A stretch of 64,000 nt of DNA from Rhodocyclaceae bacterium (GTDB lineage Bacteria; Pseudomonadota; Gammaproteobacteria; Burkholderiales; Rhodocyclaceae): positions 998-64,997 of the forward strand of contig JANXRC010000146.1 of the NCBI GenBank assembly GCA_025353195.1. The letters are read 5' to 3'. Made by a program: the position numbers and the translations under genes. Shown piece by piece: positions 1-14,707 of the stretch. The notes below the pieces were generated by a model. The model did no database searches and was not told the origin of the DNA. It was given only the letters and a program-made list of their open reading frames with translations. Every line of letters begins with the position of its first letter. The stretch's first letter is position 1.

Positions 1-908
1 TTGTCGACACCCTGCTTGAACTGCCCGACGATGCCGCTCAGGCGGCCAAGTCGGGCAGGCGTTTGCTGCTGTATTTCGGCCAGGTGGGCTGCCCCTACTG
101 CAAGGAACTGATGCAGACCAGCTTCACGCAGAAGGCCATCGCGGACAAGACGGCCAAATATTTCCTGCCGATTGCCTTCAACCTGTTTGGCGATCGCGAG
201 GTCACCTGGTTCGACGGCAAGGTCCGCAGCGAAAAGGAACTCGCCAGGTTTCTCAAGGTGCAATTCACGCCCACACTCCTGTTGCTCGACGAGAAAGGCA
301 ACATCATCGGGCGCATCAACGGCTTCTACCCGCCGCACCGATTTTCCGCGGCGCTCGATTACTCGGCGCAGCGACTGGAGGGCAAGCTGTCGTTTGCCGA
401 GCACATGAGGGCGGTGCCGCAAAGCGGCGCCAGCGCAACGCTCAACGAGGAGGCCTTCTTGATGAAGGCACCCTTCAATCTGGCCCGAAAAGCCGGGGGC
501 AAGCCGCTGGCCGTGTTGTTCGAAACGCGTCACTGTGCGCCCTGCGATGAATTGCACCGGGAAGCCTTCAAGCGTGAAAAGACGCTGGCCGCGGTTTCGC
601 GCTTCGACGTCGCGCGCTTCTCGCTGTCAGGCCGCGAGGCGCTGACCACGCCGGACGGGCGCAGCAGCAACGCCGAAGCATGGGGCAAGGAACTCGGCAT
701 CAGCTACACGCCGAGCGTGGTGTTCTTCGATGACCGTGGCCGGGAAGTGTTCCGGCTGGAGGCCTACCTGCGCCCCTTCCACTTTGCCGAATCGTTCGCG
801 TATGTCGGTAGTGGCGCCTACCGCAAGGAGCCTGAGTTCCAGCGCTTCCTGCAGAACAAGACTGAACACCTGAAGGAAAGCGGGGAGCGGCCGGAGTTGT
901 GGAAGTAG
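1..908 (+). CDS. soxW: SoxW-like tandem thioredoxin-fold protein, 5' truncated by window edge
   Basis: Frame is open from position 3 (VDTLLELPDDAAQAAKSGRRLLLYFGQVGCPYC). Two thioredoxin-like halves with CPYC and CAPC motifs; VQFTPT/ISYTPS cis-Pro loops. Confidence 0.7.
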   Translation, partial: VDTLLELPDDAAQAAKSGRRLLLYFGQVGCPYCKELMQTSFTQKAIADKTAKYFLPIAFNLFGDREVTWFDGKVRSEKELARFLKVQFTPTLLLLDEKGNIIGRINGFYPPHRFSAALDYSAQRLEGKLSFAEHMRAVPQSGASATLNEEAFLMKAPFNLARKAGGKPLAVLFETRHCAPCDELHREAFKREKTLAAVSRFDVARFSLSGREALTTPDGRSSNAEAWGKELGISYTPSVVFFDDRGREVFRLEAYLRPFHFAESFAYVGSGAYRKEPEFQRFLQNKTEHLKESGERPELWK

Positions 909-922
909 CGCCTGTTTTCAGC

Positions 923-3586
923 TCATTCGGTCCGGTACAGCTTCCCTTTGCGTACCAGCCACTTCTCCACTTCAACCCCCCAGAACACCACGCTCGATAT
1001 GAGCACGCAGGCGACCAGTTCTCCTGCGCTGAGCGGCTGGGTATGGAAGATGGAATTGAGCGCGGGCACGTACAGCGTGGTCATTTGCAGCAGCACGGTG
1101 CCGATCAGCACAATGATCAACGGCCGGTTGGATAGCACGCCGATGGTGAACAGCGATTCGCGCTCGGAGCGGATTGCAAGTATGTGGCCGAGTTGCGCCA
1201 GGGTGAGCACGGTGAATACCATGCTCTGCCAGTGCGCGTCGCCGCTGTGGTAGGCCCAGGCCTGCGTCAGCAGCGTGGCGGCGCCCATCAGCAGGCCGAC
1301 CCAGACGACATGCTGCCAGAGGCCGTGGGCGAAAATGCTTTCATTCGGCGGGCGCGGCGGGCGGCGCATGACGTCACGCTCGGATGGCTCGATGGTGAGG
1401 GCAAGACCGGGCAGGCCATCCGTCACCAGATTGATCCAGAGGATATGAATCGGCAGCAGCGGGATCGGCAGTCCGAGGAACGGCGCGAGCAGCAGCGTCC
1501 ATATCTCGCCGGAATTGCTGGCCAGAATGTACTTGATGAACTTGCGGATGTTGTCGTAGATGCGCCGGCCTTCGCGCACCGCATGCACGATGGTGGCGAA
1601 GTTGTCGTCCAGCAGCACCATGTGCGCGGCCTCGCGCGCCACGTCGGTGCCGCCCTTGCCCATGGCGACGCCGATGTTGGCCGCCTTCAGCGCCGGCGCA
1701 TCGTTGACGCCGTCGCCGGTCATCGCGACGTATTCCCCGTTGGCCTGCAAGGCCTGCACGATGCGGATCTTCTGCGCCGGATCGACGCGGGCATAGACCC
1801 TGACCGATTCCACCTGCGTCCGCAGTTCGGCATCCGACAGCGCAGCCAGCTGCGGGCCTGTCAGGACGACTTCGCCGTTGTTGTCGCTGACGATGCCCAG
1901 TTGGCGCGCAATGGCGCTCGCCGTCGCCGGATGGTCGCCGGTGATCATGACCGGCGTGATGCCCGCTGCCTGGCATTCCGCCACGGCATGGTGCGCTTCG
2001 CGCCGTGGCGGGTCCATCAGGCCGACCAGCCCGAGCAGGGTGAGCCTGCATTCCGCCGTGGGCAGATCATCCGGCAGCGTCTCCAGTCGACGCATGGCGA
2101 TCGCCAGCACTCGCAAACCGGCCTGGGCCATCGTTTCCGCCTGCCGCTGCCATGCATCCGACATTAGCGGGCGTTCACCCTCTGCATCGAGCTGGTAATC
2201 GCACAGCGCCAGTACGACTTCCGGCGCTCCCTTGGTGTAGGCGATGAACTCGCGGCCGGCCTGGTGCAGGGTCGTCATGCGCTGGCGTTCTGCGTCGAAC
2301 GGAATCTCGGCAACGCGCGGATAGGTCTGTTCCAGGAATGTCCGGTCGGAGCCATGGTGCAGCGCGGCTTCCAGCAGGGCGATCTCGGTGGGGTCGCCGG
2401 AGGCCTGACCGGATTTGCCCAGACTGGCATCGCTGTTGAGGGCGAGCGCACGGAACAGGTTCTGCCACGCCTCCGTGTCCAGGGACGGGGTGGCAGAGCC
2501 GGCGGCATAAAAGACTTCCGCCTGCATGCGGTTCTGGGTCAGCGTGCCGGTCTTGTCGGAGCAGATGTAGGTAATTGAACCCAGGGTTTCCACGGCCGGC
2601 AGGCGGCGCACCAAGGCATGTTGCTTGACCATGCGCGAAGCGCCGATGGCCAGCGAAATTGCGACCACGGCCGGTAGTGCCTCCGGAATTGCAGCGACGG
2701 CCAGGCTGACCGCGGTCATGAACATGAGCAGCATCGGTTCGCCGCGCAGCAACCCGGCGGCAAACACGACGGCGCAAATCGCGAGCAGGACAATGGTGAG
2801 CCGCCCGCCGAAACGCGCCAGACGTTGCTGAAGCGGCGTGCGGCTTTCCTTGGCTTCCGCCAGCAGGGTGGCGATCTTGCCCAGTTCGGTGGCCAGCCCG
2901 GTGGCAATGATGATGCCGCTGCCGCGGCCATAGGTGACGATGGTGCCCTTGTAGGCCATGTTGCTGCGGTCGCCCAGGGCGCTGTCGGCGGCCGCCAGCT
3001 TTTGCACGGTCTTTTCCGACGGATGCGATTCGCCCGTCAGCGCTGCCTCGGCGATGCGCAGGTGTGCGCTGTCGATCAGGCGCAGATCCGCCGGTACGAT
3101 ATTGCCCGCCTCCAGCAGCACGACATCGCCCGGCACGATCTGGTGCGATGGCAGGCTTTGCAGTTCACCGCCGCGCCGCACCCGCGCCAACGGCATGGCC
3201 ATGTTGCGCAACGCGGCGATGGCGCGCTCGGTTCGGGTTTCCTGGAAGAAGCCGATGCTGGCATTGAGTGTCACGATGACAGCGATTGCCAGCGCGTCCT
3301 CGAATTCGCCGAGGGCCATGGAGATGGCAGCGGCAGCGAGCAATACCAGGATCATCACGTCGCTGAACTGGGACAGGAAGATTTGCAGCGGGCCGCGCTG
3401 CTTGCCTTCCGGCATGGCGTTGGGGCCATGGCGGACAAGCCGGCTGGCGGCTTCGTCCGTGGTCAGGCCGGCCGCCGGCTCTACCTTCAGTGCAGTGGCC
3501 ACTGCCTCGGCAGTCAGGGTATGCCACGGCGGAGTGCGAGACTCGGTCAGCGGAGCATGCGGTGTGGTCATGGCTGGATTATGCAT
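923..3586 (-). CDS. P2A-type cation-transporting P-type ATPase (Ca2+/Mn2+-like)
   Basis: TGES, DKTGTLT phosphorylation site, MITGDH and TGDGVNDAPALK motifs; membrane motifs AIPEALP, ILASNSGE, WINLVTDGLP. Confidence 0.93.
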   Translation of the reverse strand: MHNPAMTTPHAPLTESRTPPWHTLTAEAVATALKVEPAAGLTTDEAASRLVRHGPNAMPEGKQRGPLQIFLSQFSDVMILVLLAAAAISMALGEFEDALAIAVIVTLNASIGFFQETRTERAIAALRNMAMPLARVRRGGELQSLPSHQIVPGDVVLLEAGNIVPADLRLIDSAHLRIAEAALTGESHPSEKTVQKLAAADSALGDRSNMAYKGTIVTYGRGSGIIIATGLATELGKIATLLAEAKESRTPLQQRLARFGGRLTIVLLAICAVVFAAGLLRGEPMLLMFMTAVSLAVAAIPEALPAVVAISLAIGASRMVKQHALVRRLPAVETLGSITYICSDKTGTLTQNRMQAEVFYAAGSATPSLDTEAWQNLFRALALNSDASLGKSGQASGDPTEIALLEAALHHGSDRTFLEQTYPRVAEIPFDAERQRMTTLHQAGREFIAYTKGAPEVVLALCDYQLDAEGERPLMSDAWQRQAETMAQAGLRVLAIAMRRLETLPDDLPTAECRLTLLGLVGLMDPPRREAHHAVAECQAAGITPVMITGDHPATASAIARQLGIVSDNNGEVVLTGPQLAALSDAELRTQVESVRVYARVDPAQKIRIVQALQANGEYVAMTGDGVNDAPALKAANIGVAMGKGGTDVAREAAHMVLLDDNFATIVHAVREGRRIYDNIRKFIKYILASNSGEIWTLLLAPFLGLPIPLLPIHILWINLVTDGLPGLALTIEPSERDVMRRPPRPPNESIFAHGLWQHVVWVGLLMGAATLLTQAWAYHSGDAHWQSMVFTVLTLAQLGHILAIRSERESLFTIGVLSNRPLIIVLIGTVLLQMTTLYVPALNSIFHTQPLSAGELVACVLISSVVFWGVEVEKWLVRKGKLYRTE

Positions 3587-3622
3587 TGAAGCCTGCGGCA
3601 GGCGGGTGCCGCTACACCGCGC

Positions 3623-4726
3623 CTACCCTGCAGCGCTGTCGAACAACGTCCCGACGGCGAGTGGAAGATATACGAACAGCGCAACACCATTGCCCGAGGC
3701 AGGGGCACCAATCTCGACGGTGCCGCGGTGCAGTTCAGCGATCCGGCTGACGATGGAAAGGCCGAGACCGCTGCCCGAAGAGTCGGCGCTGGCGCTACGG
3801 TAAAAGCGCTGCTGAACCCGCTCGCGTTCGTCTGCCTCAATGCCGCGCCCGTTGTCGCTGACGGTCAGCACGGCGCGGTCTCGATCCCGGGTGATGGAGA
3901 CATCGATCTGCGTGGCGCCACCGTGGCGCAGGGCGTTGTCGACCAGGTTGCGCAGCAGTACCTGCAGCAGCACGGTATCACCCCGGACCTGCGCGTCGCC
4001 GTCGCCCAGCATCAAATCGCAATGGTGCTCGATGGCTTCACCCGCGCTCATTGCCAGGACCTCTTCGGCAATCGGCCGCAGCGCAACATTCTGCATCTGC
4101 TGCGGCGTGTCGGCATCCAGCCGCGCCAGGGTCAGCAACTGCGCCACCAGATGCGTGGCGCGGTCACAGCCGACCAGGATTTGAGACAGCGCGTGTTGCC
4201 TCTGCGCAGGGTCGACGGAAGCCAGCGCCACCTGTGCCTGTGCCTTGAGCGCGGCCAGCGGGGTGCGCAGCTCATGGGCCGCGTCGGCGGTAAAGCGACG
4301 CTCGTTCTCCAGCGCCCGCATGATGTCGGCGAACAGGCTGTTGAGCCGCTTAACCAGTGGCTCAACTTCGGTAGGCAGGGATTCTGTCGGCAACGGGTCG
4401 AGCCGGTCGGGTGTCCGTGCGGCGACATCGCGTGCGAGCCGGCGCAAGGGTGCCAGAGAAAAGCCGATGGCAATCACCAGCAACAGTGCCAGCGCAGGCA
4501 GGGCGAACAGCATCGGCTTCAGCAGTTGCTGGGCAATTTCAGCCGCCACCTCATTGCGTTCCTTGACGAAGTGGGTGGCGGTGGTGCTCGGCGGGTGGGC
4601 CAGCAGTTCTTCCAGTTCGTGACGGGCTTCGCGCCAGGTAACGAAAGCCGTCAGCAACCAGACCACCGCTACGGCCAGCAGAGTGAGGCCGACCAGCCGG
4701 GTGCGCAGGGACAGCGGACGCTTCAT
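3623..4726 (-). CDS. Sensor histidine kinase, QseC/PmrB-like
   Basis: Two TM helices, HAMP, H-box FTADAAHELRTPL, NLVDNALRH, DNGRG and GSGLGLSIV. Start taken as ATG 4726 (ATGA overlap with the regulator stop) rather than the ORF-track start 4969. Confidence 0.93.
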   Translation of the reverse strand: MKRPLSLRTRLVGLTLLAVAVVWLLTAFVTWREARHELEELLAHPPSTTATHFVKERNEVAAEIAQQLLKPMLFALPALALLLVIAIGFSLAPLRRLARDVAARTPDRLDPLPTESLPTEVEPLVKRLNSLFADIMRALENERRFTADAAHELRTPLAALKAQAQVALASVDPAQRQHALSQILVGCDRATHLVAQLLTLARLDADTPQQMQNVALRPIAEEVLAMSAGEAIEHHCDLMLGDGDAQVRGDTVLLQVLLRNLVDNALRHGGATQIDVSITRDRDRAVLTVSDNGRGIEADERERVQQRFYRSASADSSGSGLGLSIVSRIAELHRGTVEIGAPASGNGVALFVYLPLAVGTLFDSAAG

Positions 4727-5394
4727 GACGGAGTTCCTGTTTTGGCGACGACGTAGCCGATGCCGCGCAGGGTGCGGATGACGTCCGGTCCCAGCTTGCG
4801 CCGCAGATGATGGATGTACACCTCGACCGTGTTGCTGCCGATTTCTTCGCCCCAGGCGTAGAGATGTTCCTCCAGCTGGGCGCGGGAAAGGGCACGTCCC
4901 GGCTGCTGCATCAGGGCATGAAACAGGGCGTATTCCTTGGCCGACAGCTTGACCTCCTTGCCCTTGCATTCGACGCGCCGCGTGGCGGGATCGAGCGTGA
5001 CATCGGCCGTCGTCAGCACGGGCGACGGCTGGCCGCCGGCGCGACGCAGCAGGGCTCGCAAGCGCGCCGTCAGTTCGCCGAGATCAAAGGGCTTCACCAG
5101 GTAATCGTCGGCGCCGGCGTCGAGGCCCCGGATGCGGTCATCGACCGTGTCGCGGGCGGTGAGGATCAGCACCGGCAGGGTCTTTTTCTTCGCCCGCAGG
5201 TGGCGCAGGACCTCCAGTCCATCCATGCGCGGCAGGCCGAGATCGAGGACCACGGCCGCATAGTCTCCGCCCGCCAGTGCCGTCTCGGCACTGATGCCGT
5301 CCCTGACCCAGTCGACGGCATGGTCGGCCTGACGCAGGCCGACCTGGAGCGCGTCGCCGAGCAGGGCGTCATCTTCAACCAGCAGAATTCTCAT
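4723..5394 (-). CDS. OmpR-family response regulator, QseB/PmrA-like
   Basis: MRILLVEDD, VVLDLGLP, LTARD, GADDYLVKPF receiver motifs and a winged-helix end (IRTLRGIGY). Confidence 0.95.
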   Translation of the reverse strand: MRILLVEDDALLGDALQVGLRQADHAVDWVRDGISAETALAGGDYAAVVLDLGLPRMDGLEVLRHLRAKKKTLPVLILTARDTVDDRIRGLDAGADDYLVKPFDLGELTARLRALLRRAGGQPSPVLTTADVTLDPATRRVECKGKEVKLSAKEYALFHALMQQPGRALSRAQLEEHLYAWGEEIGSNTVEVYIHHLRRKLGPDVIRTLRGIGYVVAKTGTPS

Positions 5395-5935
5395 TGCGTA
5401 GTTTTTTCCAGCCGGTGATCATAGCCAGGATCAGGTTTTCGCGGTGCAGCCAACTGCTGACGATGACACCCGCAATGTGGATCACAACAATCGCCATCAT
5501 GCCATTGGCGGCGCCTTCGTGCAGTTCTTCCAGGAAGTGTCCGCCCAGATCTTCGTACGCGGCCCAGCCGCTGGCAGCGGCGACGATACCGAAGCCGAGC
5601 AGCAGAAAGATGGCCACGGCTCCGGCCGGATTGTGACCGATGTAGTGCTGCGGCCTTCCGTCGATCAGGGACTTGAGGTAGTCGATCAGCTTCCGCGGTG
5701 TCGGCAGGAATTCGGCAAAGCGCGAATAGCTGCCGCCGACGAAACCCCACAACAGGCGGAAGGCAATCAGGCCGGCAAGGGTGTAGCCGGCGACCACGTG
5801 AATGTCGCGCAGTTTTTCGGATTCGGCGGTGAGGAAGGCGATGGCGAAACTCGCTACCAGCGACCAGTGGAAGATCCGCGTCGGCAGATCCCAGACGCGG
5901 ATGGGTTTGGTTTCCGTGTTCATGATGGTCCTCAT
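5375..5935 (-). CDS. Membrane cytochrome b (Ni/Fe-hydrogenase cytochrome b-like family)
   Basis: VWDLPTRIFHW, GHNPAG, LHE and IHIAGV His ligands; HRENLILAMITG end. Alternative start at 5923 with GAGG SD. Confidence 0.88.
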   Translation of the reverse strand: MRTIMNTETKPIRVWDLPTRIFHWSLVASFAIAFLTAESEKLRDIHVVAGYTLAGLIAFRLLWGFVGGSYSRFAEFLPTPRKLIDYLKSLIDGRPQHYIGHNPAGAVAIFLLLGFGIVAAASGWAAYEDLGGHFLEELHEGAANGMMAIVVIHIAGVIVSSWLHRENLILAMITGWKKLRNENSAG

Positions 5936-6402
5936 TTGGGACTGACGGCCGAATGATCGCTGTATTCGCCGACCGCCGCGAGGGCATGGCAGGCGGCACA
6001 GTTGGCCGGACTCTTGATCGCGACGCGCTTCCAGGTCGCGGTGGATATTTCGCGATGCTTCTTGGCAAACCGCGCGGTCTCGGTGATACGTAGCAGAGGC
6101 TTGCCCTGGGCATCGCGGGTATCGCCCGTCTTGCGGCCGCCTGAATTGGCGACCAGAAAGTCGGTGATGGCGGTACGGCGTTTTTCATCGATGCTGGCGT
6201 CTGAGCCGAAGTGGCGCGACAGATCGCCCATCATGGCCCGCCAGGAATCGGCATGCAGCATTTGCGGCGGAAAGGCGATGTGGCAGGAGCCGCATTCTTC
6301 TTCAAAAACGGCGTTTTTCGGCAGGCGGTAGCTGTCGGCCTGGGCCGGCAGGGCAAGGGCGGCCAGCAGGGCGAACAAAGGCGGGAAGATGATTCGCTTC
6401 AT
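5932..6402 (-). CDS. dhc: Diheme cytochrome c (DHC family)
   Basis: Signal peptide; ECGSCH..PP and NCAACH heme motifs; SW..MM..L..HFG and RITET motifs. Confidence 0.88.
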   Translation of the reverse strand: MKRIIFPPLFALLAALALPAQADSYRLPKNAVFEEECGSCHIAFPPQMLHADSWRAMMGDLSRHFGSDASIDEKRRTAITDFLVANSGGRKTGDTRDAQGKPLLRITETARFAKKHREISTATWKRVAIKSPANCAACHALAAVGEYSDHSAVSPK

Positions 6403-6415
6403 GATGTTCTCCGGA

Positions 6416-6796
6416 TTACTTGGGGGCCAGCAGCCAGGCCATTACGTCGGCCTTTTCCTGGGCGCTGCAGAGCCGATTGAGGGTGTCGTTGCAGTTACGG
6501 CGGAACCATTTGTCCACCTTGGCGGCATCGGTGAAGCGTTCGGCATTGGCCGCCGGCGCCAGCGGCGCGATGGCCTTGCCGGTCTTGGCATGACGACCCG
6601 CTTGCGCCGGCCGTTCGGTGTGGCAGGAGGCACAGCTCCACTCGCCGCCGTGACTGGTGTTGAAGAAGCGTGCGCCGCGCTCGGCGGAAGCGGCTGCGCC
6701 GGCTTCCTTCTCGAAGCGCGTCAGAAAGTCACGCGGCGTTTCGGCAAGGGCGCTCGAAGCGAAGAGTGCGGCTGCAATGATGAGAATGTGTCGCAT
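6416..6796 (-). CDS. shp: Sphaeroides heme protein-like monoheme cytochrome c (DUF1924)
   Basis: Signal peptide MRHILIIAAALFASSALA; SCASCH heme motif; KVDKWFRRNCNDTLNRLC cysteine pair. GGAG SD precedes ATG 6796. Confidence 0.85.
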   Translation of the reverse strand: MRHILIIAAALFASSALAETPRDFLTRFEKEAGAAASAERGARFFNTSHGGEWSCASCHTERPAQAGRHAKTGKAIAPLAPAANAERFTDAAKVDKWFRRNCNDTLNRLCSAQEKADVMAWLLAPK

Positions 6797-6842
6797 GGGA
6801 ATCTCCATGATTGTTGAGTGAGGCGAATCATGGAGGGCGCTG

Positions 6843-6859
6843 CTTAAACGGCGCTTAAG
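6843..6859 (-). promoter_or_regulatory. PmrA/QseB-type direct-repeat binding site
   Basis: Minus strand reads CTTAAG-CGCCG-TTTAAG (YTTAAK-N5-YTTAAK), followed 10 nt later by a -10-like CATGAT, upstream of shp. Confidence 0.7.
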
Positions 6860-6899: not shown

Positions 6900-7382
6900 C
6901 TAGCGCGTCTTGATCGGCTGCCCGGTGGTGATGAACATCAGCGTGCGGGCCTCGCGGATGTCGGCGTGAAGGGCCTCGACGATGGGCGGGTTGGCCGGAG
7001 TTTCGGCGTTCCAGACAATCAGAAAATTGGCGCCGGAACCGCCGGCGGTGTCGGTGCGCGACACGAACATCTCGTGTGTGCCGAGCGGCGGAATTGTCAC
7101 CGGCGCGTTGACGTAAGCCCGCACCAGCTTGCCGACGGTGTCGTAGTAGCGCGCCGAGGTAATCCTGATCGGTGTCAGTGGATCCGTATTGCGGATACTC
7201 ACATGAGTCGAAACCAGCGTCTGCGCCGGTTTGCCGTCCTTGCCCGGATCACCGTGATAGACATGCGAATAAACCGGGAGGTACAGGGTTTGCCCGGACA
7301 GCAGGGCCGGTTCGTCAGCGCCGAAGGCTTGCGTCGACAGCAGGCCGAGCAACAGGGTGCAGCGCCGGAGGAAACTGTTCAT
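6900..7382 (-). CDS. DUF3124 family exported protein
   Basis: Signal peptide; GQTLYLPVYSHVY, SIRNTD, YYDT.GKLVR and GGSGANFLIVW motifs. Confidence 0.8.
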   Translation of the reverse strand: MNSFLRRCTLLLGLLSTQAFGADEPALLSGQTLYLPVYSHVYHGDPGKDGKPAQTLVSTHVSIRNTDPLTPIRITSARYYDTVGKLVRAYVNAPVTIPPLGTHEMFVSRTDTAGGSGANFLIVWNAETPANPPIVEALHADIREARTLMFITTGQPIKTR

Positions 7383-7419: not shown

Positions 7420-9138
7420 CTACTTCTTCGGCGGCGCGTAGTAGTCGCGCAGCGAGGCATAGCGGTCGGCCCGCGCCGCGCGCACATGAAGGATAGCGCG
7501 CTTCATCGGAATGCCGGCCTGCACCAGTGTTTCGGCGGCGATCAGCAGGCTGCTTTCGAGCACTTCGGGAATCACCTCGGTCGCTCCGGCGGATTTCAGG
7601 CGGGCGACATCCTTGTCGTCGGTCGTGCGCACCACGATGGGAATTTCCGGCCGCGTGCCGCGCACGATGCGCAGCACGCGTTCGGCGGAATGGGCATCGG
7701 GATAGGTGACGACCACCGCGCGGGCCCTGGCGATTCCCGCCGCCTGCAGAACTTCGGGGCGGTCGGCGTTGCCGAAGACGACGTTGATGTCCTGGGCGCG
7801 GGCTTCGGCGATGCGTTGCGGGTCTACGTCAAGCGCGATGAACGGGATGTTTTCGATGCCGAGAAACTCGGCGATGCGTTGACCGGTGCGCCCGTAACCG
7901 CAGATGACCACATGCTGGCCGAGATCGAGGCTATGCACGGCAATGGTGTGGATCACGGTGGCCTTGTGCGCCCAGTCGCCGCGTCCCATGTCGCCCGACA
8001 GGCGCGCGGTGCGGGCGATCAGGAAAGGTGCAATGAACATCGACAGCAGCATGGCCGACAGCGTGATCTGAAAGGCGCTGATGCCGATCAGTTGCAGTTC
8101 GTGGGCGAGATCGATCAGCACCAGGCCGAACTCGCCGCCCTGGGCCAGTTGTGCCGAGGTACGCAGACTGGCGACCAGTGGCGTTTTCGCCACCCGCGTG
8201 ATGAGCAGCATCACCAGGGCCTTGCCGCCGATCAGCAGGGCTACCGCCAGCACCAGCTTGTGGGCATTGGCGATGACATAGTGGATGTCCAGCATCATGC
8301 CGACGGTGACGAAGAAGAGGCCGAGCAGGACGTCCCGAAACGGCCGGATGTCGGCTTCGACGTGGTGGCGATAGGCTGTTTCCGAAATCAGCATGCCGCC
8401 GACGAAAGCACCGAGAGCCAGGGACAGCCCGCTGCGGGCTGTAAGAAGGGACAGGCCGACCACGATCCACAGCGCGGTCAGCACCAGCAGTTCGCTGGAC
8501 TTGTACTGGGCGGCGCTATCGAGAATTCGGCCTATCAGTTTCTGTCCGACCCAGATCAGCAGTGCCAGCACGGCGACCGCCTGTACTGCGGCCACCGCCA
8601 GCGAACGCAGCAGATCATCGCCGGAGGCTGCCAGCGCCGGCAGCAGGATCAGGCAGGGCGCCACGGCGAGGTCCTGAAACAGCAGGACGCCCATGGTCTG
8701 CCGCCCGGAACGCGAGTGCAGGTCGAAGCGTTCGGACAGCATCCTGGCGACAATCGCGGTTGAGGACATGGCGACCGCCAAGCCGACCGCTATGCCGCTC
8801 TTCCATCCCTGGCCGTAAGCGAGCGCCGTCACCAGGCCGGTACCCAGCGCGGTCAAGGCCATTTGCGCCGAACCAAAACCGAATACCAGCGCACGCATGG
8901 CCTGCAGGCGCTTCAGGCTGAACTCGAGGCCGATCGAAAACATTAGGAAGACGATGCCGAACTCGGCGAAGCCCCCCACTTCGTCCGTTTCGGTCAGCAG
9001 CGCCAGCCCGTGCGGTCCCAGCGCAATGCCGATCGCCAGATAGGCGAGCATCGAGGGCAATTTGAAGCGGCGTGCGACGGCGACTGCGCCGACTGCGGCG
9101 GTGAGTAGCAGAAGGATCGAGAGGAGGTTGGAGTGCAC
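7420..9138 (-). CDS. CPA2 (Kef-type) cation/proton antiporter with RCK-N domain
   Basis: AEFGIVFLMFSIGLEFS, LLFQDLAV, LAQGGEFG; C-terminal ICGYGRTG Rossmann motif. GTG 9138 preferred as start. Confidence 0.9.
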   Translation of the reverse strand: MHSNLLSILLLLTAAVGAVAVARRFKLPSMLAYLAIGIALGPHGLALLTETDEVGGFAEFGIVFLMFSIGLEFSLKRLQAMRALVFGFGSAQMALTALGTGLVTALAYGQGWKSGIAVGLAVAMSSTAIVARMLSERFDLHSRSGRQTMGVLLFQDLAVAPCLILLPALAASGDDLLRSLAVAAVQAVAVLALLIWVGQKLIGRILDSAAQYKSSELLVLTALWIVVGLSLLTARSGLSLALGAFVGGMLISETAYRHHVEADIRPFRDVLLGLFFVTVGMMLDIHYVIANAHKLVLAVALLIGGKALVMLLITRVAKTPLVASLRTSAQLAQGGEFGLVLIDLAHELQLIGISAFQITLSAMLLSMFIAPFLIARTARLSGDMGRGDWAHKATVIHTIAVHSLDLGQHVVICGYGRTGQRIAEFLGIENIPFIALDVDPQRIAEARAQDINVVFGNADRPEVLQAAGIARARAVVVTYPDAHSAERVLRIVRGTRPEIPIVVRTTDDKDVARLKSAGATEVIPEVLESSLLIAAETLVQAGIPMKRAILHVRAARADRYASLRDYYAPPKK

Positions 9139-9325
9139 GAGGAGATCATACCGTGCGGCACGGCTCAGGCTGGCGTCATGGGTACAATGGCATGCTTCGG
9201 ATGGCCGCTTTATCATTCACGATCGACAAAGTCTTGCCGCGTCGCCTGGGCTACGGCAAGTTTCTCGGCGCTGCGAGCTTCACCGGAGCTTCTTGAACCA
9301 CGCCTTCTGACCAAGAAACGACACT

Positions 9326-13270: not shown

Positions 13271-14101
13271 TTATTGGATAGCGGTAGACGGCGGCCGGAC
13301 GCGGAAGATGCGCATCCCGGCCAGAATGAGTATCAGGGTGGTGGAATAGAACACGACCTGAATGCCTGACGGCATGGCTTCATAGCCGGCAAGTGTGTGC
13401 AGGAAGCGGCCCACGAGCGAGGCGTTGTCCAGCAGCCACGAGGTGTCCCACAGCGGCGTGGCAAGGCTGGGCAATATGTCGGCCTGAACCAGAAAGCGAG
13501 CCGCCTGGCTGGTCATGGCGGCAGCCAGCAGGAGGATGAGGCCGCTGGTGGCAGCAAAAAACATGCGGGTGGGAATTCGAACGAAGCCGGCGTAAAGCCC
13601 GTAGCCGGCGAGAGTGCCGACGAGGAGGCCGATGGCGCCACCGCCGAGGACAGTAGCCAATGTTTCTTCGCCGCCCGTGAGCAGGCCATAAAGGAAGAGG
13701 GCGGTCTCCGAGCCCTCGCGCAGGATTGCGAGCGCCACAACCGCAGCCAGCGCGGACATTTCGCGGTTTCCGGAAGTGACGTCCTGCCCCAGTTGTCTGG
13801 CATCCCTCGCCAACTGCATGCCGTGGCGGGCCATCCAGATGTTGTGCCAGGCCAGCATCGCTGCGGCAAGTCCGAGGATGCCGGCGTTGAACAGTTCCTG
13901 GCCGGCGCCCTCTGCCAGTTCAGCGATCTGCCCAGTCAGCGAAGCGACGATCAGGGAACCGGCTAGCCCGGCACTGATGCCCGTGAGCAGCCAGAAGTTC
14001 CGCGCCTGCATGCCGCGCGTCGCGGCTGCGATGATGCCGATGATCAGTGCAGCTTCCAGGGCCTCGCGGAAGACGATGATGGCTGAGCCGAGCATGGGCA
14101 C
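13271..14101 (-). CDS. FTR1/EfeU/FtrC-family high-affinity iron permease
   Basis: Two RExxE motifs (REALE, REGSE) in TM segments. Confidence 0.93.
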   Translation of the reverse strand: MPMLGSAIIVFREALEAALIIGIIAAATRGMQARNFWLLTGISAGLAGSLIVASLTGQIAELAEGAGQELFNAGILGLAAAMLAWHNIWMARHGMQLARDARQLGQDVTSGNREMSALAAVVALAILREGSETALFLYGLLTGGEETLATVLGGGAIGLLVGTLAGYGLYAGFVRIPTRMFFAATSGLILLLAAAMTSQAARFLVQADILPSLATPLWDTSWLLDNASLVGRFLHTLAGYEAMPSGIQVVFYSTTLILILAGMRIFRVRPPSTAIQ

Positions 14102-14422
14102 TTACTCCGCGATGACGGCGCCGCGGGCCGTCTTTTCGTTGAACTCGCCGAAGAAGGGGTAGCGCCCGGGTTTGAGCGGGCCAATGAAGATGCTGGCCTT
14201 CGTACCGGGCGCGATGAGTTTTTCCCGGTTGAGTTCGTGGCTCTCGAATTCCTCCGGGGTCGCGTCCTGATTGTGCACCACCAGCTTGACCTTCTGTCCG
14301 GCGGGCACCCTGATTTCCCCCGGGTCGAAGCGGTGGTCGCGGATGGCTATAGGGATTTCGGCATCCGCAGCCAAGGCGCAAAGGGAAAGCAGGGACAAAA
14401 GCAGGGCGAAAAGTGTTTTCAT
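14102..14422 (-). CDS. Periplasmic cupredoxin-domain protein (FtrB/EfeO-N-like)
   Basis: Signal peptide; FDP.EIRVPAGQKVKL, EEFES and GRYPFFGEF motifs. AAGGAG SD precedes ATG 14422. Confidence 0.88.
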   Translation of the reverse strand: MKTLFALLLSLLSLCALAADAEIPIAIRDHRFDPGEIRVPAGQKVKLVVHNQDATPEEFESHELNREKLIAPGTKASIFIGPLKPGRYPFFGEFNEKTARGAVIAE

Positions 14423-14436
14423 TACGGCTCCTTTTG

Positions 14437-14469
14437 ACAAATGATAATCATTCGCATTCGCATCGTCAA
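14437..14469 (-). promoter_or_regulatory. sigma70 promoter overlapped by a Fur box
   Basis: Minus strand TTGACG (14469-14464), 17 nt, TATCAT (14446-14441). ACAAATGATAATCATTCGC matches the 19-bp Fur consensus at 14/19 with a perfect 13-bp core, extended by CATTCG hexamers. Confidence 0.88.
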
Positions 14470-14621
14470 GTACTTTTGCAATATTTTGTGTTGCAGTCAA
14501 TCGCTTATTTCGGAGTCGGTCTGGCCAGGCGTCGCCAAGTCGTTGAATCGATCTGCCGCGGATGTCGCCAATGCGGGTTTACGCTCCTCACAAAGCACAT
14601 TCGCTTTCCTGTCTATCCCTA

Positions 14622-14642
14622 TTGATTTAAATCAGTATTTTA
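14622..14642. promoter_or_regulatory. FNR-like palindrome overlapping an IHF-like site
   Basis: TTGAT-TTAA-ATCAG (9 of 10 FNR half-site bases) overlapping AATCAG-TATT-TTA (WATCAR-N4-TTR) in an AT-rich patch. Confidence 0.45.
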
Positions 14643-14707
14643 TAGTTGAAATCTCTCGAATGGCGTAGCTAAGCCCTTGTTGCGTTTGGAAAAAACTCGA
14701 CTCGTTC

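Follow-up and report, generated by a model that had tools for sequence, protein, structure and literature searches.

Using a 64,000-nucleotide stretch of DNA from a Rhodocyclaceae bacterium (assembly GCA_025353195.1, contig JANXRC010000146.1, positions 998 to 64,997), which we call the window throughout, we analysed a row of six genes that brings together a cytochrome chain around the monohaem cytochrome SHP, a two-component system and a P2A-type cation ATPase (Table 1). The genes are tightly packed on one strand. Only 13 nt separate shp from dhc; dhc and the cytochrome b gene overlap by 4 nt (ATGA), the cytochrome b and response regulator genes by 20 nt and the regulator and histidine kinase genes by 4 nt, and the ATPase gene follows the kinase gene after 36 nt. 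Every gene assignment in the row is backed by Pfam, and the six co-oriented genes with overlaps or gaps of 36 nt or less, which a preliminary description of this DNA had given, are confirmed by the coordinates. The likely true start of shp is the ATG at 6796, which has a GGAG Shine-Dalgarno sequence at 6805-6802 and gives a clean signal peptide; an alternative ATG lies at 6808.

Table 1. Features of the SHP locus in the window and positions of the CDF cassette in related loci.
Feature	Position	Strand	Description
shp	6416-6796	-	Periplasmic monohaem c-type cytochrome, DUF1924; 126 aa with signal peptide; open reading frame from 6808
dhc	5932-6402	-	Soluble dihaem cytochrome c (CGSCH + CAACH), signal peptide; Pfam DHC PF09626
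Cytochrome b561	5375-5935	-	Membrane protein, quinol side of chain; Pfam Ni_hydr_CYTB
Response regulator	4723-5394	-	OmpR-class, PmrA/BasR/QseB/BqsR group; Response_reg + Trans_reg_C
Histidine kinase	3623-4726	-	HisKA + HATPase_c; cytoplasmic part QseC-like
P2A-type cation ATPase ('type A')	923-3586	-	Cation_ATPase_N/E1-E2/Hydrolase/Cation_ATPase_C
TTAAG-N6-TTAAG direct repeat	6843-6858	-	Putative BqsR/PmrA-type response-regulator box
GC-rich hairpin	3590-3637	-	Covers kinase stop codon and 36-nt spacer; without U-tract
DUF3124 gene	6900-7382	-	Upstream neighbour, outside the box-marked promoter; Pfam DUF3124, E 9e-40
KefC-like CPA2 antiporter with TrkA-N domain	7420-9216	-	Upstream neighbour conserved in the genus
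Double-thioredoxin-like gene	3-908	+	Pfam Thioredoxin_2; convergent; conserved downstream edge of the ATPase slot
CDF cassette	L019:7352-10987 (= L049:11946-15578); L043:8717-9628; L066:12974-18214; own genome contig C3:3-1071		Each behind a TTAAG-N6-TTAAG box

The history of SHP goes back to 1985, and since 2010 its operon has been recognised in dozens of proteobacteria; its physiological role is not agreed. The locus described here does not settle this role. Its first five genes are the SHP operon with a QseC-like sensor that was already described by Meyer, Kyndt & Cusanovich in 2010, who reported operons of three to six genes with sensor kinase/regulator pairs; in most species the operon carries one of three kinds of pair, of which 'SK2' is related to QseC (PMC2909971). 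In the window, SHP matches Pfam DUF1924 (E 5.7e-39, 132.8 bits) and, as best solved structure, the R. sphaeroides SHP (1DW0, E 1.2e-26). The CASCH haem site is aligned with that of 1DW0, and RNCNDTLNRLC stands opposite RNCNSVIGRDC, a segment that holds the distal Asn and the disulphide cysteines. The dihaem cytochrome (PF09626, E 1.6e-34, 119.9 bits) and the membrane cytochrome b (PF01292, Ni_hydr_CYTB, E 4.4e-28, 98.7 bits) are encoded on the same strand, and the QseC-related kinase and its OmpR-type regulator lie inside the cluster, as in the SK2 operons of the 2010 study. The window differs from these in two respects: a periplasmic core of about 92 residues is deleted from its kinase, and a P2A ATPase gene follows the kinase gene. 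The 2010 paper names no ATPases and no regulator box (PMC2909971).

By scanning species-representative genomes with an SHP alignment, we obtained 80 public loci. The order shp, dhc, cytochrome b, regulator, kinase is found in about 52 of them, namely 12 in the Sulfuritalea clade, to which the window belongs, and 40 outside it. Because this five-gene core recurs so widely and the six-gene order recurs across Sulfuritalea, the arrangement is not due to chance. The earlier view of the trio as a known electron chain with an unsettled role thus agrees with the family assignments and with the literature, and the operon does possess its own two-component system, although this had been published before (PMC2909971). 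Electron transfer from quinol over cytochrome b and DHC to SHP, as well as the binding of O2 and NO by SHP, is known for the R. sphaeroides and Shewanella proteins only, according to the work cited in PMC2909971 and in the later Ferrigenium study, where a reported NO dioxygenase activity is cited as well. While the core operon is already known, the present analysis adds a conserved operator of the BqsR/PmrA type, a sensor that has been truncated and exporters that recur.

Upstream of shp, the segment CTTAAGCGCCGTTTAAG at 6843-6859 holds the core of a TTAAG-N6-TTAAG direct repeat. It is the sole perfect match in the window, and the 3.4 Mb assembly contains six such matches, where about one is expected. 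The box ends 47 nt upstream of the shp start and therefore overlaps the expected -35 region. As a sequence it corresponds to YTTAAK-N5-YTTAAK (tandem TTAAG-N6-TTAAG), the operator of the PmrAB/BqsRS/QseBC family. The same tandem repeat is bound by BqsR of P. aeruginosa in gel shift experiments (PMC4358008), and the BqsR box overlaps the RNA polymerase site (PMC4358008; PMC12632288). The half-sites are kept in all 18 genus loci and the spacer drifts. Among the 79 public loci with enough upstream sequence, 37 carry the repeat at -48 to -78 of shp, and elsewhere in the loci it occurs at 0.012 per kb. Outside the Sulfuritalea clade, the box was found in 23 of the 40 SHP loci with the regulator pair, as against none of the 19 without it. 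From this pattern we infer that the regulator activates its own shp promoter via the box; binding by the operon's own regulator would mean that the operon autoregulates. Such a short and conserved operator makes the regulon predictable in any genome.

The proposal that all six genes lie behind one promoter received mixed support. The box marks a promoter region; scans for consensus sigma-70 promoters and intrinsic terminators, however, gave only chance-level matches and nothing at the shp promoter, at the gene junctions or at the 3' end of the kinase gene, so that the single promoter is a prediction. Further boxes were seen elsewhere. On contig C230 of the same genome (26790-32886) three more TTAAG-N6-TTAAG boxes occur within 6 kb; they surround a paralogous long-sensor QseBC-like pair (regulator 56% identical) and precede this pair, a Sel1-like/SulP transporter unit and a lipoprotein gene. 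Another regulon with this kind of operator is probable here. In a Lysobacter-like metagenome-assembled genome (MAG; L080:4311-6073) a box lies directly after the kinase of the SHP operon and before a small open reading frame and an FccB-like flavocytochrome c sulfide dehydrogenase flavoprotein. In Allochromatium vinosum grown on pyrite, the two most induced gene sets are fccAB and the SHP cluster (PMC11267869). A second SHP paralogue, 38-40% identical and accompanied by DHC, is present in many Sulfuritalea genomes (L028 and L031, that is G002 and G019, and others). It is divergent from another regulator/kinase pair, and nearby there is no box and no cytochrome b match.

The regulator reaches 252.6 bits with the NCBIfam model PmrA (cut-off 330) and 251.6 bits with QseB (cut-off 345); as both scores are under the equivalog cut-offs, it is a member of the family and not an orthologue of a named system. 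Its best PDB match is BasR (4S04/8JO2, E 3e-54). For the kinase, the top NCBIfam model is QseC with 273.6 bits, covering profile positions 144-434 only, which is the cytoplasmic two-thirds, and the PmrB model matches over the full length (positions 5-355); both scores are again below the equivalog cut-offs. The periplasmic sensor of the kinase consists of a loop of about 40 residues (REARHELEELLAHPPSTTATHFVKERNEVAAEIAQQLLKP). Between the two membrane helices, the Sulfuritalea clade has about 40 residues throughout, whereas relatives outside it, among them L054 as a near relative as well as Ferrigenium, Thiofilum, Paraburkholderia and Azohydromonas, have about 130. Alignment with long-sensor relatives reveals a clean internal gap of about 92 residues, which leaves two membrane-proximal stubs. 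Judging from this alignment, the short loop is the remnant of an internally deleted QseC-like periplasmic domain.

The first stub, RHELEELL, contains an HExxE motif (HELEE), which is invariant in the 25 of 25 short-loop sequences inspected. The second motif of the loop, KERNE, varies in the relatives (RERNE, KERNQ, KDRRK). In PmrB, HExxE has been linked to Fe3+, and in BqsS, RExxE to Fe2+ (PMC4358008). Since the loop is laid out like those of PmrB and BqsS, a cation signal is the best guess, and by analogy with these two sensors the likeliest input of the kinase, with its two stubs, would be divalent cations in the periplasm or a signal from the envelope. Similarities to BqsRS/CarRS of P. aeruginosa and PmrAB/BasSR of enterobacteria comprise the same regulator family, the identical TTAAG-N6-TTAAG motif overlapping the promoter and a two-pass kinase with a short periplasmic loop bearing [H/R]ExxE. 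The window system differs from them in that it scores under the named equivalogs, in that its loop comes from a deletion in a QseC-like domain and in that its outputs are cytochromes and not lipopolysaccharide or polyamine genes. At the HExxE position, two of five aligned long-sensor relatives have RELDE or HELDE and a third has REEFD (RExxD). Because long-sensor relatives carry such a motif at the same position, HExxE is not a novelty of the short loop, and it becomes less plausible that the loop gained its ExxE motifs anew as a PmrB-style metal site. The metal-type sensor of the preliminary description is therefore only partly upheld: the PmrA/PmrB-family matches, the BqsR-type box and HExxE/KExxE favour it, but the loop is a deletion remnant and its motif also occurs in long sensors. 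In any case, the 'minimal' Sulfuritalea sensor with its 40-residue loop narrows the search for the signal.

The gene behind the kinase encodes a P2A-type ATPase, as had been proposed. Besides its Pfam domains, this is indicated by the best PDB match, LMCA1 of Listeria monocytogenes (6ZHF, E 4e-189; alignment of residues 37-851 of 887), and by the NCBIfam models, of which the PMR1-type (737.4 bits, cut-off 798.3) scores before the SERCA-type (618.8 bits, cut-off 703.4), both under their cut-offs. The core motifs DKTGT, TGES and GDGVNDAP are present. At the ion sites we found IPEAL in M4, NSGE in M5 and NLVTD in M6, with the Ca2+ ligands of site II, the M4 Glu and the M6 Asn/Asp, intact. LMCA1 has the identical M4 IPEAL and shares the N...D of M6 in addition to DKTGT and TGES. 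The window pump differs from it by SERCA-like Asn/Glu in M5, where its Glu replaces an Ala of LMCA1, and by a Gln in M8, where LMCA1 has Arg; this last position is presumably that of SERCA Glu908. The M5 Glu and the M8 Gln thus make the site-I region more SERCA-like than in LMCA1. The pump is most likely a Ca2+ exporter and possibly also exports Mn2+.

Within the genus, we compared 24 genomes in addition to that of the window. The SHP cassette is present in 22 genus genomes, and the region downstream of the kinase could be resolved in 20; in 19 of these, a P2-type ATPase gene lies downstream of the kinase on the same strand. It follows directly, after 24-109 nt, in 11 genomes only. In seven genomes a 960-residue PAS-GGDEF-EAL gene is placed between kinase and pump, which argues against the pump as an integral part of the system. 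One genome has an SO_0444-like permease and a small ArsE-type thioredoxin in this place (L021), and in one public locus (L047) an insertion sequence follows the kinase and no pump is found. The PAS-GGDEF-EAL protein of about 960 aa has the phosphodiesterase DibA as its best model, below cut-off, and its gene is co-oriented (L013:5143-8067, L041:8811-11687 and seven other loci).

Two types of pump occupy this slot, as we found by comparing positions 923-3586 of the window with loci L013-L027, L039-L041 and L043-L054. Type A is carried by the window, G005, G007, G014 and L043. Type B, found in 15 genus genomes, is only about 45% identical to type A and has Ala in place of the M6 Asp, whereas all neighbours are 62-94% identical. 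A thioredoxin-like gene, 73-89% identical, adjoins both types in 24 loci. Two pumps of about 45% identity between the same conserved flanks mean that the pump gene was exchanged in place. Ala at the M6 Asp (LWINMTTAV) is shared by type B and by related pumps of other families, which together form a subfamily. A type-B pump persists in three genus members that lack the SHP cassette (G002, G017 and G019); the genes of G019 run KefC, GGDEF-EAL, ATPase, thioredoxin, with neither SHP nor the regulator pair. In 14 junction regions, no regulator box was found before the ATPase, the GGDEF-EAL gene or the permease, even when one half-site mismatch was allowed. In three loci (L019, L020 and L049) a 4.4 kb insert splits the trio from the regulator and kinase genes; here a second box lies upstream of the regulator gene, and the pump gene is still located 31-34 nt behind the kinase gene. 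Signs of decay were observed at the junction as well: the type-B pump gene of G020 is split into three frames (L030:8439-11128), the kinase gene of G011 is broken in two, and no pump lies within 4 kb of it (L029:10140-11230), and the insertion sequence of L047 (rve transposase) lies at 13800-14690.

Beyond the genus, the linkage is absent. A P2A pump adjoining the regulator pair was seen in none of the 40 distant SHP loci that carry this pair, and the survey of 80 loci rules out the pump as a general companion of SHP. In 33 distant loci, the genes after the kinase are a mixed set of unrelated housekeeping type (leucyl-tRNA synthetase, TPP enzymes, a helicase, a recombinase and others), with a cation exporter in only one of the 33. 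Conversely, homologues of the ATPase (42-68% identical) in other families of the order were inspected in six loci, and neither the regulator pair nor SHP was found near them; homologues that carry the regulator pair elsewhere are thereby rejected for these six. Unlinked relatives had been named beforehand as an outcome that would speak against a common unit, and the answer is divided: the ATPase is linked within the genus (19 of 20) and unlinked beyond it. The suggestion that the pump gives the trio its function fails on the distant loci and on the three genus members that keep the pump without the cassette. The pump is a clade-specific, exchangeable neighbour, and a function of the trio cannot be read from it alone. 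From one genome alone, its adjacency would be over-read. The only pump directly after the trio elsewhere is of another kind: in L120 (9413-13675) the gene of an MgtA-type Mg2+-importing P-type ATPase (1145 bits with the NCBIfam model, above cut-off) lies 95 nt behind dhc, shp and cytochrome b, and no regulator pair is present in this locus.

Overall, we consider it probable, though well short of certain, that the locus is the Sulfuritalea version of the known self-regulated SHP operon with a lineage-specific pump gene behind it. Electrons would pass from quinol to the membrane cytochrome b561, then to the soluble dihaem cytochrome and finally to SHP, whose distal Asn ligand would be displaced on reduction, allowing it to bind and turn over a small ligand (O2 or NO), after the model of the R. 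sphaeroides protein. The phosphorylated regulator of the PmrA/QseB/BqsR family would bind the TTAAG-N6-TTAAG box over the -35 of the shp promoter, and the kinase, with HExxE and (K/R)ExxE in its membrane-proximal helix stubs, would read the signal. The pump gene, 36 nt downstream and without a box of its own, would probably be transcribed in part by read-through from the shp promoter. It would belong to an older KefC...ATPase/thioredoxin backbone of the genus and would not be integral to the SHP system. Of this account, the identities of the genes, the conserved box and its tie to the regulator pair, the deletion in the sensor and the pattern of synteny are observations, while binding by the regulator, the signal, transcription of the pump with the operon, the ion of the pump and the substrate of SHP are predictions.

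Several points weigh against this interpretation. Of the 40 regulator-bearing distant loci, 17 have no recognisable box, and in the genome itself the box could also serve two paralogues of the regulator (56% and 50% identical). In L019, L020 and L049 the pump stays with the regulator and kinase behind the second box, which points away from a pump that is foreign to the system. The adjacency within one genus may be inherited synteny without functional meaning. Both the co-transcription and the promoter itself are things that we infer from sequence. Moreover, the region 3565-3640 folds with -34.5 kcal/mol (z -2.56), and this hairpin could stop much of the read-through.

The same hairpin bears on the view that only neighbourhood connects the two parts, the ATPase being a housekeeping Ca2+ pump that is expressed independently from a constitutive promoter in or after the kinase gene, the SHP transcript ending at the hairpin and the tight spacing being an accident of a compact genome. 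This view agrees with a stable hairpin across the kinase stop codon, with the KefC-GGDEF/EAL-ATPase-thioredoxin backbone of G019, with a variable junction that has taken up three different inserts and an insertion sequence element, and with homologues at 65-68% identity in other families that have no regulator pair nearby. We regard it as unlikely, but worth serious consideration, since the hairpin lacks both a U-tract and conservation, the scan for consensus promoters gave nothing at the 3' end of the kinase gene, and the same-strand adjacency has been kept in nearly all resolved genus loci even after the pump was exchanged. The hairpin ends 3 nt before the ATPase ATG and could occlude the ribosome-binding region of the pump or end part of the transcripts. 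In a comparison with 13 other direct junctions it proved not to be conserved, which rules out a conserved terminator or attenuator at this junction. As a stable hairpin without a U-tract, it makes read-through into the pump gene likely but not certain, and for this genome we would put predicted read-through only slightly ahead of its absence.

Returning to an SHP operon with a lineage-specific pump, we asked how it compares with a single metal-responsive (Fe or Ca) redox-and-export module of all six genes, in which the short-loop kinase would sense periplasmic Fe or Ca and drive the SHP chain and the pump together. Regulator and kinase belong to the PmrAB/BqsRS family, in which BqsS senses micromolar Fe2+ and millimolar Ca2+ and governs Ca homeostasis (PMC4358008; PMC12632288). 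The invariant HExxE of the short-loop kinases and the pump that directly follows the kinase in 11 genomes, and remains with the pair behind the second box when the trio is separated, are consistent with such a module. Other cation exporters also appear around SHP clusters. The 4.4 kb insert of L019, L020 and L049 encodes three recognisable proteins, divergent from the regulator and behind a box: a CDF exporter (best models MntE and FieF), a multihaem cytochrome c and a ferredoxin reductase resembling the flavin/NAD module of flavohaemoglobin (Hmp). In L043, the closest public relative of the window, a CDF gene with its own box is divergent from shp; in the Gallionellaceae MAG L066 it lies directly after the kinase gene, and on contig C3 of the window's own genome it stands behind a box. 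The same CDF is 81-84% identical between Sulfuritalea and this MAG; the cassette looks like a mobile member of the same regulon. The SO_0444-like permease of L021 can be added to these exporters.

Published data point in the same direction. The SHP cluster of A. vinosum holds a CzcD gene (PMC2909971), and on pyrite Alvin_0019-0025, including 'ferrous-iron efflux', are among the most induced genes (PMC11267869). This cluster resembles the window in having SHP and a regulator beside a cation exporter; it differs by its sensor, SK1 with Orf1, by an exporter that is a CDF and not a P-type ATPase, and by its origin from a gammaproteobacterial phototroph (PMC2909971; PMC11267869). In Gallionellaceae, the ircABCD genes respond to Fe(II), and the SHP2 cluster of Ferrigenium straubiae, which includes the regulator pair, is strongly induced in nitrate-dependent Fe(II) oxidation compared with microoxic growth (bioRxiv 10.1101/2025.02.27.639646; 10.64898/2026.01.22.701106). 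Like the window, these clusters combine monohaem SHP-like, dihaem and b-type cytochromes, in Ferrigenium as a five-gene cluster with the regulator pair. In the Ferrigenium altingense locus L057, SHP is 60% and the regulator 68% identical to those of the window, and the box lies at -74. They differ from the window by the extra membrane protein IrcC of irc, by long-sensor kinases and by the absence of an attached pump. Sulfuritalea, to our knowledge, is not a known iron oxidiser.

Against the metal-responsive module stand the 40 distant loci without a P2A pump, the single cation exporter among 33 post-kinase genes, the persistence of the pump without the cassette in three genus members and the lack of a box before the pump gene. 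In addition, the first ExxE-type motif also occurs in two of five long-sensor relatives and is thus not a derived metal site, a P2A pump is of the Ca/Mn type and not a known Fe exporter, and the two pump types differ at the key M6 Asp and are therefore unlikely to move the same ion. We hold this module to be rather unlikely. The association of exporters with SHP clusters is sporadic, and a cation- or metal-stress reading of SHP clusters in general is likewise doubtful, though far from negligible. It would state that a BqsR/PmrA-box regulon for divalent-cation stress in the periplasm (Fe(II)/Mn(II), perhaps Ca) has the SHP/irc chain among its outputs and has repeatedly recruited cation exporters across Burkholderiales and Gallionellaceae, a proposal that in our judgement has a minority chance of being correct. 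The exporters so recruited would be the two kinds of P2-type ATPase in Sulfuritalea, the MntE/FieF-like CDF, the SO_0444-like permease and CzcD in Allochromatium, and this list is just as tentative. If it were true, the trio would handle redox-active periplasmic metal, whether to protect the cell or to provide an electron sink linked to Fe(II), and would not serve O2/NO respiration as such; the Sulfuritalea kinase with its PmrB-like HExxE loop would be a direct metal sensor. The recurrent though sporadic pairing with manganese/iron-type and calcium-type exporters fits the transcriptomes that tie SHP/irc clusters to Fe(II).

The data from Ferrigenium may also be read in terms of nitrosative or low-oxygen stress. 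SHP would then be a quinol-fed NO dioxygenase or reductase in denitrification, and the pump would be co-induced, with Ca2+ extrusion as part of the response. The O2 and NO binding and the reported dioxygenase activity of SHP suggest such a unit, as do the strong induction of the Ferrigenium SHP2 cluster with its regulator pair under nitrate-reducing relative to microoxic conditions, the Hmp-like reductase of the CDF cassette and the PAS-GGDEF-EAL protein between kinase and pump in many relatives. A possible parallel is the P2A pump CtpF, which belongs to the NO/hypoxia DosR regulon of Mycobacterium tuberculosis. However, Pfam gives no domain for the sensing of NO or O2 in the kinase, neither haem nor PAS nor any other, and no FNR/NnrR-type site was found upstream of shp when this region was checked by eye, the only palindrome being TTG-N12-CAA with the wrong spacing. 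The Ferrigenium contrast, moreover, differs in nitrate, oxygen and dissolved Fe(II) at once. A stress unit of this kind is quite improbable.

The thioredoxin-like gene converges on the ATPase gene and is 14 nt away from its stop codon. On the other side, the DUF3124 gene lies 91 nt upstream of the shp open reading frame on the same strand, and the KefC-like antiporter gene further upstream is co-oriented as well. The DUF3124 gene is placed between KefC and shp in the window, L021, L025, L043, L051 and L055. In the remaining loci of the L013-L055 range, it is found about 1.1 kb upstream of KefC with only 57-61% identity, and these may be two paralogues.

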